From Treponemataceae bacterium (GTDB taxonomy: Bacteria; Spirochaetota; Spirochaetia; Treponematales; Rectinemataceae), in contig CAXXVZ010000005.1 in assembly GCA_963678065.2 (NCBI GenBank), positions 928,001 to 992,000 of the forward strand: a stretch of DNA of 64,000 nucleotides, read 5' to 3'. Position numbers and translations under genes: made by a program. The notes under the pieces were generated by a model that searched no databases, was not told the origin of the DNA, and saw only the letters and a list, made by a program, of their open reading frames with translations. Below, one piece after another: positions 1-5,449 of this stretch (the stretch's first letter is position 1; every line of letters begins with the position of its first letter).

Positions 1-102
1 TCGGCGGGACAAAATGTGCCTGAGCGGAATGAGCGTATGCGAGTGAAGCGAATGGCCGAAGAGGGAGCTTGCGACCGATGAGCGTGGGCAGTGCTGTTAG
101 GC
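1..102 (-). repeat. attC-like site (truncated by the window edge)
   Basis: Same family as the other repeats; R'' GCCTAAC (minus) at 96-102, 12 bp after the stop codon of ORF 115-957. Confidence 0.85.
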
Positions 103-114
103 GATGGCGCATGA

Positions 115-957
115 CTACAATCGGGCAAATGTTGCTACTTCGCCACTTGTATTACTATATATTTTAAGTCCGATATATTCCCGATTGTTGCTTAATAAAA
201 CTGATCCCGTGGGAATAGACTTATCGTCATCTAAAACATGAACATTTATTATATCCTTTTCGGATGATAACACTTGACATATTTTTATCTCAATTTCATG
301 GTTCTTATTTATAAATAAGCAAAACATAAAAGTACTAATAGGTATTATTCCATCATATATTTTGAAAATACCAGTATATTGCCTTTTATTGTATTCAATC
401 TCGTTTTTTGCTCTATCTAGTGCGATTATACTCTCTGGAATTATTTTCTCATTATTTTCATATGGATCATAAATCGTGACAGAATTTAAATGACTATCAA
501 ATATAGGTATTATCGTTCTTATTTTCCCATCATTTGTAAATATTCCATTCGCGTCACGTTTCCCATCTTTTGTTTTATATGTAATCTGAGATATTTGATA
601 TGTTTCATTCATATAGATATTCTTTACAATTTCAGTTATTATTTTTAGTCCACCTTTATAATCTTGTAATATTTTACATAATTCTTCTATATTATTCTCA
701 TTTATGCAGTCATTTATAAGTTCTATCCCTTTTTTTATTCCTTTTTTCATAAATATTGTATTAAACCCAATCATTTTTTTAATGGGACTTTCTTGTTCAA
801 TCATTATAGCGTAGTCATTTACTAACCGCAAATCTTGATTCTGTATTTCTTTGTTATTAAATATAATTGTCACCAATATCCCAACAACAGCAATAATAAT
901 AGATGAGAATATTTTGGTTATCACATCTATTTTATCCCAGTTATCTTTGGTAGCCAT
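115..957 (-). CDS. Cassette protein, 280 aa: N-terminal TM helix plus a possible degenerate trypsin-like domain
   Basis: Hydrophobic IFSSIIIAVVGILVTIIF; NGIFTNDGKIRT and PTGSVLLSNNREYIGL resemble trypsin/HtrA motifs; RBS-like AAGGA upstream; very AT-rich. Confidence 0.7.
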   Translation of the reverse strand: MATKDNWDKIDVITKIFSSIIIAVVGILVTIIFNNKEIQNQDLRLVNDYAIMIEQESPIKKMIGFNTIFMKKGIKKGIELINDCINENNIEELCKILQDYKGGLKIITEIVKNIYMNETYQISQITYKTKDGKRDANGIFTNDGKIRTIIPIFDSHLNSVTIYDPYENNEKIIPESIIALDRAKNEIEYNKRQYTGIFKIYDGIIPISTFMFCLFINKNHEIEIKICQVLSSEKDIINVHVLDDDKSIPTGSVLLSNNREYIGLKIYSNTSGEVATFARL

Positions 958-985
958 TTTAATCTATCCTTTGTCATGCGCTTTC

Positions 986-1127
986 GCCTAACGTTCGCCT
1001 GCCTACGACGTTGTGGCGAGCATCGGCGAGCCACAATGTGCCTGAGCGGAATGAGCGATAGCGAGTGCAGCGATGGCCGAAGAAGGAGCCGACAGGCGAC
1101 TGATGAGCGTGGGCAGTGCTGTTAGCT
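986..1127 (-). repeat. attC-like site (142 bp)
   Basis: + strand gcctaac(986-992)...gttagct(1121-1127); L-box pair tgcctacg/cgtgggca; internal hairpin ttgtggc/gccacaa. Confidence 0.88.
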
Positions 1128-1195
1128 GATGGTTTGCCCCCCATCCATGTCTTTTCTCTCTTCACCTTATTCATTGTTCTTCAATATCTTATACC

Positions 1196-1705
1196 TTATA
1201 TCTTTATCCAATAATAACAATGTTCATGTTCTATCTTTTCCAATATCCCATTATTCCATTCTATTACTTTTCTTGATCCTCTGTTGGTTTCATCACATGT
1301 TATCAATACATCATTCACATCACGTTTCTTTATTTCGTTCAATGTCAGTTCCAATAACTTCTTCCCATACCCCTTATTTCGTTGTTCTTTCCGAATCCCA
1401 TATCCTATATGCCCACCATGAGCACGCAATTTATCGGTTAAGTAATGCCTCATTTTTGAGTACCCTAGTACTTCTTCATCATCCATAAGCCAATATATTG
1501 TTTGTGGCACATATCCTTTTTCAAGCTCAGGAGCTTCATACTGCGCAATAAGTTTTTCGATATATCCCGGATACTCTTCCCATGAGATCCCATATCCACC
1601 ATTCATAAATCCATTTTCTTCTTGATCAATCGATTGTAGCATCTGATAAATGTTTCTATTCGTTGTATCACGTTCAGAAACCTTCTGAATGTAAATCCTA
1701 CCCAT
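1196..1705 (-). CDS. Cassette GNAT-family N-acetyltransferase (169 aa)
   Basis: GHIGYGIRKEQRNKGYGK acetyl-CoA motif; LITCDETNRGSRKVIEWNNG; ATG 1705 with AAGGAA RBS. Confidence 0.9.
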   Translation of the reverse strand: MGRIYIQKVSERDTTNRNIYQMLQSIDQEENGFMNGGYGISWEEYPGYIEKLIAQYEAPELEKGYVPQTIYWLMDDEEVLGYSKMRHYLTDKLRAHGGHIGYGIRKEQRNKGYGKKLLELTLNEIKKRDVNDVLITCDETNRGSRKVIEWNNGILEKIEHEHCYYWIKI

Positions 1706-1859
1706 AATAATTCCTTGAACTATACACTGTAGTACCATAAAACCAGATCGGGTCATTTATGCGCATAAATTTGATATCCAAAGTCTCAAACATGAAGATA
1801 AATTTCGCATGCATTAAAACATAGGTATCTGCACATCTGATCTTGGGGGGCAAACTTTC

Positions 1860-1998
1860 AGCTAACGTTCTGCCTGTTTGCGACGATGGCGCGAGCATCG
1901 GCGAACGCCATTGTGCCTGAGCGAAATGAGCGTATGCGAGTGCAGCGATGGCCGAAGAGGGAGCCTGCGACCGATGAGCGTGAACAGCGCTGTTAGTT
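1860..1998 (-). repeat. attC-like site (139 bp)
   Basis: agctaac(1860-1866)...gttagtt(1992-1998); nearly identical to 3308-3445. Confidence 0.88.
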
Positions 1999-2118
1999 GC
2001 AGTCGTGACCTTCGAGCGCGCTTGGATGGGGAGACTTGTCTCCTCATCCAATACTCTATCTTGCGCGCGTTCTTTTCTTCCTCTTCTCTTAACCTTATTT
2101 TTTCACGATTGCAACTAA
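1866..2118 (-). mobile_element. ORF-less cassette, copy 2
   Basis: Only ~114 bp between R boxes; 30-nt near-palindrome at 2022-2051 and a polypyrimidine tract; near-duplicate of 3314-3570. Confidence 0.8.
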
Positions 2119-2253
2119 CGTATGCCTGCCTGCGACGTTTTGGCCCGCATCGGCGGGACAAAATGTGCCTGAATGAAACGAGCGAATGCGAGTGGAATGA
2201 AGGCCGAAGAAGGAGCCGAAGGCGACTAATGAGCGTGGGCAGCGCTGTTAGGC
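2113..2253 (-). repeat. attC-like site (141 bp)
   Basis: aactaac(2113-2119)...gttaggc(2247-2253); L-box pair tgcctgcg/cgtgggca. Confidence 0.88.
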
Positions 2254-2335
2254 GAAGTATTGATTTCCGGTCTATACTAAATCATCGCTGTGCTGAACGC
2301 CCGGAGGGCGAAGCAAGGCGATACAATTGCATTCT

Positions 2336-3238
2336 TTATTTTGAATATATTTTATTGATTAATTCTTTTAATTTATCAAAATCAAAACTAGCATATTCTA
2401 TACTGTTATTTATATTATTCGTTTCATCGATCTGTTGCTTCTTGAAATTGAAGGAAATATGATCTACTCTATTATCAGCTAAAAGCATATTCTTAAAATA
2501 GTTGAATAATTTGCTATATTGATCAACTTCTTTTTCTGATAGATTTTCATCTTGATTTACATAATAACCAATAAATGCAGTAATACCAATAAAGTATTTT
2601 GCACAAACTAAAATTAGATTTTTATCGTATTCGATTAATGGGAAAAATCCTTTTTCAAACAACCCATATTCTTCTAATCCTTTCCAGTTACTGTGAACTA
2701 TAGTATTTCCTTTCAGATAAATATGTTCCCAAACTTCTATGCCATAATTCATTAACTTTTTTCGGATATTTCCTTCTCTATATTCCTTGTTTTCTGGGTT
2801 TTTTGCCCAATTATCTGTTGATGAAGGTTCTAAAGTAAAAAGAAGTAACTGAAGCAACCTGCTTTGCAGTGAACGAATAATTATTGCTGCATCAAAATAA
2901 CATTTGTTCTTTATAAGTACGTAAATACTTTTTATCGTTTGGATGTTTTGCTTAATCTGTAACATATAGTACCAGTCGAAATCTTTCCTTTTATCATTCT
3001 TTGAATCTTTTCGAATAATTCTATAGATTGCCATATAAGTATTTGCCATGATCATAAATTCATCAAATTGATAATCCTTACTATTCCAATAATCCCGAAT
3101 CCTAAGTCCTCCGCTTTTCTGAAAACAAAATGCTTCAACAACTGGTATTGAGCTACAGCCTTGAGGAACACCCATTTTTAGTAAATGAATCATTTTCTCT
3201 TTCATCAACTCATCGTTTATAGTAAATTTATCTTTCAT
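2336..3238 (-). CDS. Cassette protein, 300 aa, possibly DUF5677/HEPN-like
   Basis: ATG 3238 (the upstream ORF extension runs through the attC); SIYVLIKNKCYFDAAIIIRSL...W...YLKGNTIVHS pattern; AT-rich. Confidence 0.65.
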   Translation of the reverse strand: MKDKFTINDELMKEKMIHLLKMGVPQGCSSIPVVEAFCFQKSGGLRIRDYWNSKDYQFDEFMIMANTYMAIYRIIRKDSKNDKRKDFDWYYMLQIKQNIQTIKSIYVLIKNKCYFDAAIIIRSLQSRLLQLLLFTLEPSSTDNWAKNPENKEYREGNIRKKLMNYGIEVWEHIYLKGNTIVHSNWKGLEEYGLFEKGFFPLIEYDKNLILVCAKYFIGITAFIGYYVNQDENLSEKEVDQYSKLFNYFKNMLLADNRVDHISFNFKKQQIDETNNINNSIEYASFDFDKLKELINKIYSK

Positions 3239-3307
3239 TTTGTGTGAGCCCGACGGCCAGAGTCCCGGGCGAACCTTTATAAAATTTAAGCCGGAAATCA
3301 ATATTTC

Positions 3308-3445
3308 GCCTAACGTTCTGCCTGTTTGCGACGATGGCGCGAGCATCGGCGAGCGCCATTGTGCCTGAGCGGAATGAGCAAAGCGAGTGCAGCGATGGCC
3401 GAAGAGGGAGCCTGCGACCGATGAGCGTGAACAGCGCTGTTAGTT
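3308..3445 (-). repeat. attC-like site (138 bp)
   Basis: gcctaac(3308-3314)...gttagtt(3439-3445); L-box pair tgtttgcg/cgtgaaca; internal hairpin atggcgc/gcgccat. Confidence 0.88.
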
Positions 3446-3570
3446 GCAGTCGTGACCTTCGAGCGCGCTTGGATGGGGAGACTTGTCTCCCCATCCAATA
3501 CTCTATCTTGCGCGCGTTCTTCTCTTCCTCTTCTCTTACCCCTATTTTTTTCTTTCACGATTGCAACTAA
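3314..3570 (-). mobile_element. ORF-less cassette, copy 1 (first position of the array)
   Basis: No credible ORF; perfect 14-bp-stem hairpin ttggatggggagac-tt-gtctccccatccaa at 3469-3498. Confidence 0.8.
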
Positions 3571-3666
3571 CTATGTGTCTATGAATTTGTGGGAAAAAAT
3601 TTGATGGGGATTTTAGCTGAATGGAGTAATTTGTTGTGGGGATTATTAGCTGAAAGGAATTGTGGG
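3565..3666 (-). other. Putative attI-like recombination site
   Basis: G|TTAGTT core (3571-3565) not preceded by attC sequence; imperfect direct repeats at 3598-3621 and 3628-3654. Confidence 0.65.
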
Positions 3667-3894: not shown

Positions 3895-5076
3895 TCATGA
3901 CTCAACTTCACGATCGAGCGGGCTTGTGATGCTGAGGACGTTCCTTTTGGCAACATGTGTGTAGACCTGGGTGGTTTTCGGGCTGGCATGTCCTAACAGG
4001 ACTTGGATATAACGCAAATCCGTACCGTCTTCGAGGAGGTGCGTGGCGAAACTGTGACGGAGGCAGTGGATTGAGACTTCTTTGTCGATATTGGCTGTAG
4101 TTCGTGCACGGTAGAAGATTTCTTCCATTGAGCGGATGCTCAGATGGCCGCCTTTCTGGCCTTCGAAGAGCCAGGCTTCGGGGTTGTACATCTCGATGTA
4201 GGAAAGAAACAATTGACGGGATTTTTCGGCAAGAAGTGTATAGCGGTCTTTCCGGCCTTTGCCGCCGCGAATGAAAATGACTCGCCGGTCAAGGTCGATG
4301 TCGCAGGTCTTCAGGCGCGCGATTTCGCTGACGCGAAGGCCGCCGGAATATGCGAGGGATAGTATCAGTTTGTGTTTTAGGTTCTTAGGAGCTTTGATGA
4401 TGCGAAGGGCTTCGGGACGGCTGAGGACACCGGGAAGATGTTTGTCGGCTCGGGGCCGATGTTCGATTTGCAGTGGAAGGCCGAGAACGCGGTTGAACAG
4501 AAATTTCAGGGCGCTGATGACTTGGTTCAGCGTGGCGGCCGCCGCTCCGTTTTTCCTTCCCAGCATCGACAGGTACTCCTGAACATCGTCGATTGTGGCG
4601 CGCTCAAGGGGGTGGGGGACGATGAACGCGTTGAAGCGTTCGGCGATGGCTGTGTAACGGCGCGCTGTCTTGGGGGAGTATTTGTAGGCGGACAGAACGT
4701 CGCGGAGTGTTCGGGAAACATTAGCCGGAAGCGAAGAGGGAGATTGCGTTTCTTCGGGGGAAGGGGATCCGGAATCAGGACGCCTGATGGTGAAGGGGTT
4801 CACTACCGGCAAGGGCGCTGGCTGGACGGCTTGCGCGGATGCTGTCGTCGGCTTGCCTTTCGCGATGATGGTCCATGTCGAAAAAGCTGCTTTAAATAAG
4901 GAAAGATTTTCAACGGGAAAATTCCAAAACCTGGAAGCGTCGTCGAATCGTCGACCTGGAACAAGTTTGATAAGGCGAACAAACTCATCGGAGTATTCGG
5001 ATTGAACGCGAATACGCGAACCGTCCAGATCGGAAATGACGATGATCCGTCTGACTTCAGCGCGGGACTGCATCAC
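3895..5076 (-). CDS. Tyrosine recombinase / atypical integron integrase, 393 aa
   Basis: GLRVSE, GGKGRKDR, HCLRHSFATHLLE, LLGH, TQVYTHV (R-K-H-R-H-Y intact); SAM-like N-domain YSPKTARRY...ATLNQVISALKFLF. Confidence 0.93.
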   Translation of the reverse strand: MMQSRAEVRRIIVISDLDGSRIRVQSEYSDEFVRLIKLVPGRRFDDASRFWNFPVENLSLFKAAFSTWTIIAKGKPTTASAQAVQPAPLPVVNPFTIRRPDSGSPSPEETQSPSSLPANVSRTLRDVLSAYKYSPKTARRYTAIAERFNAFIVPHPLERATIDDVQEYLSMLGRKNGAAAATLNQVISALKFLFNRVLGLPLQIEHRPRADKHLPGVLSRPEALRIIKAPKNLKHKLILSLAYSGGLRVSEIARLKTCDIDLDRRVIFIRGGKGRKDRYTLLAEKSRQLFLSYIEMYNPEAWLFEGQKGGHLSIRSMEEIFYRARTTANIDKEVSIHCLRHSFATHLLEDGTDLRYIQVLLGHASPKTTQVYTHVAKRNVLSITSPLDREVES

Positions 5077-5310: not shown

Positions 5311-5449
5311 ACGGTATGGCGCCGCTTGTCAGAATGGGAGATCAGAAACAGACGCTGGAGACCAGAGGCCAGACGGTGGTGCCGTTTATCAGAATAGGAG
5401 ATCAGAAACATAAGTTGGAGATCAGAGGATAGACGGTGGCGCCGTTGTC
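5311..5449. repeat. Degenerate 60-bp tandem repeat (~2.3 copies) overlapping the thrB 3' end
   Basis: Lines starting at 5341 and 5401 align at period 60 (atcagaaaca...tggagaYcagagg..agacggtggYgccgtt). Confidence 0.75.

Follow-up and report, generated by a model that had tools for sequence, protein, structure and literature searches.

Why each cassette of a large bacterial gene array should end in a long inverted repeat of its own is the question raised by the stretch of DNA analyzed here. This stretch (the window) comprises 64,000 nucleotides of a Treponemataceae bacterium of the Rectinemataceae (GenBank assembly GCA_963678065.2, contig CAXXVZ010000005.1, denoted C5, positions 928001–992000 of the forward strand) and represents the integrase end of a 177-kb array of integron-like cassettes in a genome of 5.27 Mb. 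The terminal repeats, or arms, probably constitute the outer half of a Xer-like site, a half divided between the two ends of a cassette. Such a site would be complete only when these ends pair and would be served by an integron-like tyrosine recombinase devoid of the I2 domain of the integron integrases (IntI).

Array Layout and Structure of the Cassette Ends

The profile built from the four repeats of the window matched the genome at 182 sites, of which 179 lie in the same direction at C5:754,680–931,445; 169 matches are whole. The array terminates at window position 3571 with a solitary GTT arm located 329 bases downstream of the stop codon of the recombinase gene (3895–5076, − strand). The open reading frames (ORFs) of the cassettes are co-oriented in 67 of 77 cassette families, opposite in five, and missing from five; since the cassette genes lie on the − strand, the − strand is the top and the + strand the bottom one. 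The AAC/GTT triplet, boxes resembling RYYYAAC/GTTRRRY, and a hairpin are all present in the repeats. A search of Rfam found no family (the single match had an E-value of 0.49), and the orientation of the array relative to replication was not deducible from the GC skew, which is too weak.

The initial annotation listed five pairs of cassette-specific arms in the window. All five were recovered at the described positions, with pairing ending right after the described limits: 20 bp in cassette A (end arm, R''-side in gene sense, 96–115; start arm, R'-side, 973–992, terminating in the crossover triplet AAC on the + strand), 23 bp in cassette B (1121–1143 and 1844–1866), 24 bp in cassette C (2247–2270 and 3291–3314), and 17 bp in two further units (1992–2008/2103–2119 and 3439–3455/3555–3571). 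The two 17-bp pairs, however, are identical arms of one ORF-less cassette, so the window offers four independent cases rather than five. The mismatches noted about 10–11 nt into the arms were also seen, position 11 being G.T on the + strand in all five pairs and position 10 being T.T in two. The motif GATGG/CTTTC, reported as shared by two unrelated cassettes, is real but merely reflects the array consensus around positions 8–12.

In the array as a whole, arms of at least 17 bp were found in 168 of the 173 units between consecutive repeats and in 77 of the 82 families obtained by grouping units by their left arm (median 22 bp). Arms taken from different families paired over a median of only 6 bp, with 2.3% reaching 17 bp; the cognate pairing is thus not due to chance, and the arms mark the cassette boundaries, as originally suggested. 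Five exceptional families have arms of 4–10 bp; in one of them the pairing resumes after a one-base indel, and the others look like fused units.

The 77 families with long arms share a common plan. The GTTA is fixed, and positions 5–9 are paired in 99–100% of the families. Position 10 is paired in 44% (T.T in 43 families), and position 11 is never a Watson–Crick pair, presenting G.T in 68 families and T.T in nine on the + strand. The start-arm base at position 11 is invariantly A on the top strand and is never mirrored on the end arm. Positions 12–19 are paired in 91–100% of the families, and pairing decays to chance by position 24. At positions 14–19, the entropy is 1.8–2.0 bits and the mutual information with the partner column 1.6–2.0 bits, i.e., the sequence is free while complementarity is maintained. 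The arm therefore consists of nine paired bases, a defect of one or two bases at positions 10–11, and about ten sequence-free paired bases. Its G+C content is 0.46 versus 0.35 in the cassette bodies, and pyrimidine-rich flanks follow the arms on the bottom strand.

Comparison with Canonical Integrons

The same genome carries a second, canonical and reverse-oriented integron on another contig (C3:96956–126000) with at least 10 attC sites and a canonical, I2-bearing IntI (TIGR02249, 450 bits). Each of its cassettes opens with a small GC hairpin with a GNRA/UUCG-like loop just behind the R box. The ends of the C3 cassettes pair over 7–8 bp in nine of nine units. For a broader control, 42 stretches beside IntI genes were taken, 18 of which gave three or more canonical sites, and units with cognate R boxes were counted. 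The 93 distinct canonical units (70 spirochaete, 15 gammaproteobacterial, two class 1, and six from this genome, with no Vibrio array known among them) showed end pairing with a median of 8 and a maximum of 12 bp, none reaching 13 bp. The possibility that equally long extensions are routine in ordinary cassettes was not borne out, the pairing in the array being about three times as long.

A point missed by the initial annotation is that the repeats of the array are not ordinary attC sites. The detector that recovered 10 C3 sites found the canonical geometry with extrahelical bases, on either strand, in none of the 169 repeats. Instead, the inner stem of the repeats measures about 8 bp and shows covariation between repeat types, and the spacer is longer beside the bottom-strand AAC.

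The array shares with canonical integrons a tyrosine recombinase from the IntI neighborhood, co-oriented promoterless genes behind it, an AAC/GTT crossover, hairpin repeats, cognate R boxes, and a bottom-strand G.T bias (PMC5027507); the strand layout of its cassette genes is the same as in the reverse-oriented Treponema integrons (PMC3607928). It differs from them in the absence of I2 and of the extrahelical base, in a spacer asymmetric by 1–3 bases, and in ends that pair over about 22 instead of 7–12 bp with a fixed mismatch at position 11. The array behaves like an integron, but two defining features of integrons, I2 and the extrahelical base, are absent from it.

The Recombinase

The recombinase (393 aa, transcribed towards the array) was matched by TIGR02249 below the cut-off and in two pieces (4–171 and 234–314) around the I2 region. 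Relative to IntI, it has a gap of 31+10 (about 41) residues and a motif spacing of 67 versus 109. The residues R248, K273, H337, R340, H363, and Y372 are intact and invariant in 85 homologues. The structural model (mean predicted local distance difference test score 84) gave the best matches with archaeal XerA (Z 23.1 and 20.7) and VchIntIA (Z 18.7). The N-terminal part, encoded at 4852–5076, is a HARP-like domain (Pfam HARP, E 1e-6), with structural matches to the N-terminal domains of XPB and UvsW (Z 6.4–6.8). A similarly placed extension occurs in the C3 IntI; its HARP match is faint (E 0.055), and BLAST gave no alignment between the two. The HARP-like domain is at most a tentative candidate for a reader of the mismatch.

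Named homologues of the enzyme belong to the Rectinemataceae and other Spirochaetota. The profile of the recombinase family matched 54 of 301 genomes of the phylum (E 1e-95), and canonical IntI was found in 36 of 301; in family f21, this enzyme was present in 13 of 61 genomes and IntI in none of the 61. In a quick tree of 120 rows, from which three short rows, IntI1 among them, had been dropped, 13 canonical IntI formed one clade (support 100), and the window enzyme was placed in a spirochaete clade of 12 (99). The tree cannot tell whether IntI arose from these enzymes. Another I2-less tyrosine recombinase, forming a separate branch of the tree, is encoded in three near-identical copies at C3:853420, 865965, and 2359013.

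An "integron-like" subgroup of tyrosine recombinases in which the insertion is not fully conserved has been delineated (Smyshlyaev et al. 2021, PMC8138268); the accessible part of that text gives no arrays, sites, or arms for the members without the insertion. Another study (PMC6764341) concerns a different, tRNA-targeting integrase. Full-text literature searches, which largely left out subscription journals, revealed no account of long cassette ends or I2-less arrays.

Related Arrays and attI-like Sites

Related recombinases were found beside arrays with the same signature in other spirochaetes and in Bacteroidota, with arms of 14–22 bp. Of 18 stretches examined, 14 contained signature units downstream of the homologue, and a separate scan detected such units in four relatives. 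As the former scan imposed the position-11 motif, the claim on this position rests on an unconstrained repeat scan. When sites were defined by the repeat interior only, 106 of 126 units in eight arrays had cognate positions 4–9, and position 11 was unpaired in all 99 distinct units of the eight arrays, 93 of them with G.T on the bottom strand. The perfect run after position 11 had medians of 3 in Gilvibacter and Winogradskyella (Flavobacteriaceae), 5–6.5 in f21, and 7–9 in genomes G051 and G309. The shortest arms (14 bp) were those of Gilvibacter, which corresponds to a G plus approximately one monomer footprint. IntI exceeded the family cut-off in none of five signature-array genomes, three of them single-contig and two only partly covered.

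At least 55 cassettes were counted in 60 kb behind the homologous recombinase of Gilvibacter (OZ255720.1), the array being unfinished at the end of the stretch. In FJ012881.1 (L040:12001–14110), the gene tnpF upstream of tet(X3) encodes a truncated member of the recombinase family and is followed by an attI-like site; the ends of the tet(X3) unit are only partly cognate, and the position-11 signature is present.

In 27 loci, the first arm lies 54–329 bases behind the recombinase stop. Nine of these attI-like sites have an inverted copy of the arm 6–7 bases upstream (2.4 expected by chance), giving an 11+6+11 layout, which is that of dif; arm positions 2–12 resemble the 11-bp Xer arms tabulated in the same source (PMC2731167). 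These two observations allow the arms to be read as the duplex arm of one monomer plus a stabilizing extension. A loose dif pattern had no match in the genome. With the XerCD/dif system and integrative mobile elements exploiting Xer (IMEX) of the CTX phage type (PMC2731167, PMC7790495), the array has in common the 11-bp arms TTA...AAT and, at some sites of the family, the 11+6+11 layout. In the CTX phage hairpin, folded single-stranded DNA mimics a duplex site for the I2-less XerCD enzymes, as is proposed here. The array differs from XerCD/dif in having one dedicated recombinase beside many cassettes, cassette-specific arms, and, in the window, a degenerate attI.

Cassette Mobility

Copies of one cassette share the left (+) repeat in 94 of 111 pairs and the right repeat in 38 of 102, while their neighbors differ; this linkage places the crossover at the AAC ending the start arm. 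The variable but still cognate position 4 of Gilvibacter narrows the crossover to within GTT/AAC. In contig run X7, the recombinase is covered, whereas cassettes A and C are not; in run X10, one contig agrees with the integrase region up to position 3567 and then continues with 444 other letters, i.e., with a different first cassette. Repeated cassettes with different neighbors and content differing between runs indicate that the cassettes move. Neighboring arms match no better than shuffled ones at positions 12–21 (3.41 versus 3.42).

Folding and Proposed Mechanism

In modeled circle junctions, the bottom strand was the more stable in 83 of 83 cases. The crossover triplet was paired with a mean probability of 0.99 in the circle, versus 0.40 on the bottom and 0.18 on the top strand in the array. 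The initial annotation further supposed that the arms flank the same attC only in an excised circle. This holds insofar as the outer arms and the inner stem are both cognate only at the circle junction; it fails to take into account that the arms are also predicted to pair across the gene. When whole single-stranded array segments were folded (16 of the 46 families under 900 bp, every third being sampled), the own arms paired across the gene with a probability above 0.5 in 13 of 16; of the 32 flanking sites, one formed the classical hairpin. Across-gene pairing at the same level was predicted in 11 of 15 units of relatives. Five canonical C3 units showed the opposite pattern: the own ends paired with a probability of 0.00 (0 of 5 across the gene), and the classical hairpins with 0.44–0.99. 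The mean duplex energies in 157 units, computed with no loop cost, were −29.8 kcal/mol in the circle, −27.7 kcal/mol for the across-gene site (own arms plus an inner stem from two successive repeats), and −16.7 kcal/mol for the classical in-array site; the across-gene site surpassed the classical fold in 144 of the 157. With such folds, the arms could serve excision as well.

A recombinase without I2 would depend on Xer-like duplex binding arms flanking the crossover on either side, and this is the likely reason for the arms. According to the model proposed, the bottom (+) strand of one cassette would join its two ends, so that positions 2–12 rebuild the 11-bp arm for one monomer, while the inner stem of the repeat would serve the other; the folded single-stranded DNA would thus mimic a double-stranded site. 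This state would exist in the excised circle, permitting integration at attI. It is predicted in the single-stranded array too, where the arms would pair with the gene as a loop and open a route to excision. Successive cassettes may fold in series, and exchange between successive AAC triplets would free a repeat plus a cassette as a fully cognate circle. The strand mark, provided in canonical sites by extrahelical bases (PMC5027507), would be supplied by the unmirrored A at position 11 of the start arm, which would define strand and orientation. The extension beyond position 14 may represent a lineage-tuned stabilization (3 bp in Flavobacteriaceae, 5–9 in other spirochaetes, and about 10 here).

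Several observations weigh against this interpretation. The folding calculations describe equilibrium, protein-free pieces of about 1 kb, and Vibrio attC sites are reported to fold poorly in arrays as well (PMC5371416). Covariation of the inner stem occurs within a single repeat, a feature that an across-gene fold would not require. The I2 domain has been reported as necessary for cassette capture (PMC7790495), and it is therefore an assumption that an enzyme devoid of this domain acts on folded DNA. The window attI has no recognizable left arm (score −4.0), and the same is true of 18 of the 27 attI-like sites. Signature units were lacking in four of the 18 homologue stretches and in an Aquiflexum stretch, and 79 more distant homologue loci gave only seven signature units downstream and one upstream; many contigs among these loci stop a few hundred bases from the gene and many of the enzymes are distant, so that the association with arrays is established for a part of the recombinase family only. 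The array-linked enzymes did not appear as one clade in the quick tree. The listed joints of four contig runs included no circle junction, which is uninformative because contigs drop rare forms. The mechanism as a whole is inferred from sequence and equilibrium folding.

Alternative Explanations

The most serious competitor, plausible though distinctly the less probable, shares the core of the explanation given above and departs from it solely in excision. It confines the role of the arms to the excised circle: they would provide efficient integration, with the in-array sites remaining poor substrates, so that the array grows as a ratchet with rare excision and no across-gene fold forms in cells. 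Full cognate pairing of both parts only in the circle, its energetic advantage over the classical in-array site, the indifference of neighboring arms to each other, and the very large size of the array all agree with this; the across-gene site, however, is nearly as stable as the circle and prevails in most units and segment folds, and the cassettes do move. A second proposal, which we consider unlikely, is that the extension past about position 14 is a by-product of cassette making or repair, through fold-back copying or conversion in a hairpin, and is not needed for recombination. Positions 13–22 are indeed sequence-free and yet nearly perfectly complementary, their length is uniform within a lineage and different between lineages, and some homologous cassettes carry simultaneous changes in the two arms (positions 5 and 6). 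On the other hand, the mismatches at positions 10–11 should be lost by copying too but never are, and single-arm changes exist as well (positions 13 and 19); moreover, the raised G+C content and the pyrimidine-rich flanks are as for a selected stem with a defined end.

Three further readings were rejected on the evidence. It is very improbable that an ordinary attC cluster is present here, with the C3 IntI acting on it in trans and the adjacent recombinase incidental: the genome does encode a canonical IntI, and the repeats share AAC/GTT and a seven-base R-box consensus, but the canonical geometry is absent from all 169 repeats, genomes with such arrays lack IntI (none of five; in f21, 13 of 61 genomes with this enzyme versus none with IntI), and the first arm follows the recombinase stop by 54–329 bases in 27 loci. 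Still more remote is the idea of an RNA function, in which pairing between the 5' and 3' ends of the cassette mRNA through the arms would control stability or translation. The arms do bracket ORFs on one strand in 67 of 77 families; against this, the transcribed strand carries the invariant A.C with the wobble on the other strand, the ORF-less cassettes are armed too, and the pairing stops in register with the recombination triplet. Finally, inverted repeats of 17–26 bp at both unit ends are also a feature of miniature inverted-repeat transposable elements (MITEs) and insertion sequences (ISs), from which the array differs in the absence of target duplication, in repeats specific to each unit (77 distinct arm families), and in the conserved hairpin repeat that always flanks them.

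Other Features of the Window and the Array

All cassettes of the window and the repeat interiors between them are read on the − strand. An attC-like interior at 1–95, which begins 30 bases left of the window, moves with cassette A (96–992) according to the linkage test. The ORF of cassette A (115–957, 280 aa), the stop codon of which overlaps the arm end by one base, had no match in Pfam, NCBIfam, or PADLOC. The next attC-like interior (993–1120) has an asymmetric spacer, an 8-bp inner stem without an extrahelical base, and a multibranched loop. Cassette B encodes a GNAT acetyltransferase (1196–1756, 186 aa) and is followed by an interior of a second type (1867–1991) with a covarying inner stem, linked to the ORF-less cassette at 1992–2119. 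Behind another interior (2120–2246), cassette C carries an ORF of about 300 aa (2336–3238, from the first ATG within the cassette) with no family match. PADLOC matched none of the three ORFs of the window. A further interior of the second type (3315–3438) precedes the first cassette of the array (3439–3571), which is ORF-less. The putative attI (3565–3583, − strand) has a degenerate left arm, and the array ends there, with no repeat interior after it.

The ORF-less cassette of about 130 bp accounts for 52 of the 173 units, is often in tandem, and holds the first position of the array; besides the two copies in the window, 50 more are located in C5:764k–931k. Scans revealed no promoter or terminator site in it. 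ORF-less units of their own kind (129–313 bp) were also seen in related arrays. The repeat interiors hold five IS copies of about 2.4 kb (C5:761854, 788043, 796681, 822895, and 835430), four of which represent one element, with a two-ORF layout that looks IS21-like (a candidate family). Outside the array, a solitary half repeat with a GTT end lies beside a transposase gene (C2:667433–667508). Two direct repeats of 60 bases, 83% alike, are located upstream of the recombinase gene (5317–5436).

Implications

A broader proposal, which we rate as somewhat short of an even chance, is that the array represents a second widespread class of integrons that never had I2, in which each cassette pairs its own two ends and loops out the gene, a Xer-like enzyme reads the base of the stem as a duplex site, and a single fixed mismatch orients the site. 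The I2 domain is described as occurring nowhere else, and missing intermediates are named as an obstacle to understanding the origin of the integron integrases (PMC7790495). If the proposal is true, such systems would bridge the gap between Xer recombinases and IntI, and an active I2-less system would supply the lacking intermediate together with a direct test. The class would also account for the apparent lack of integrons in Bacteroidota and other groups, and the tnpF platform upstream of tet(X3) would belong to it. Tools relying on an I2 profile and the canonical attC geometry would probably miss such arrays, which can be huge (177 kb here and at least 60 kb in Gilvibacter). With the arms, such arrays can be split into cassettes by an exact rule, and the sequence-free complementarity of the arms offers a handle on how cassettes are made.

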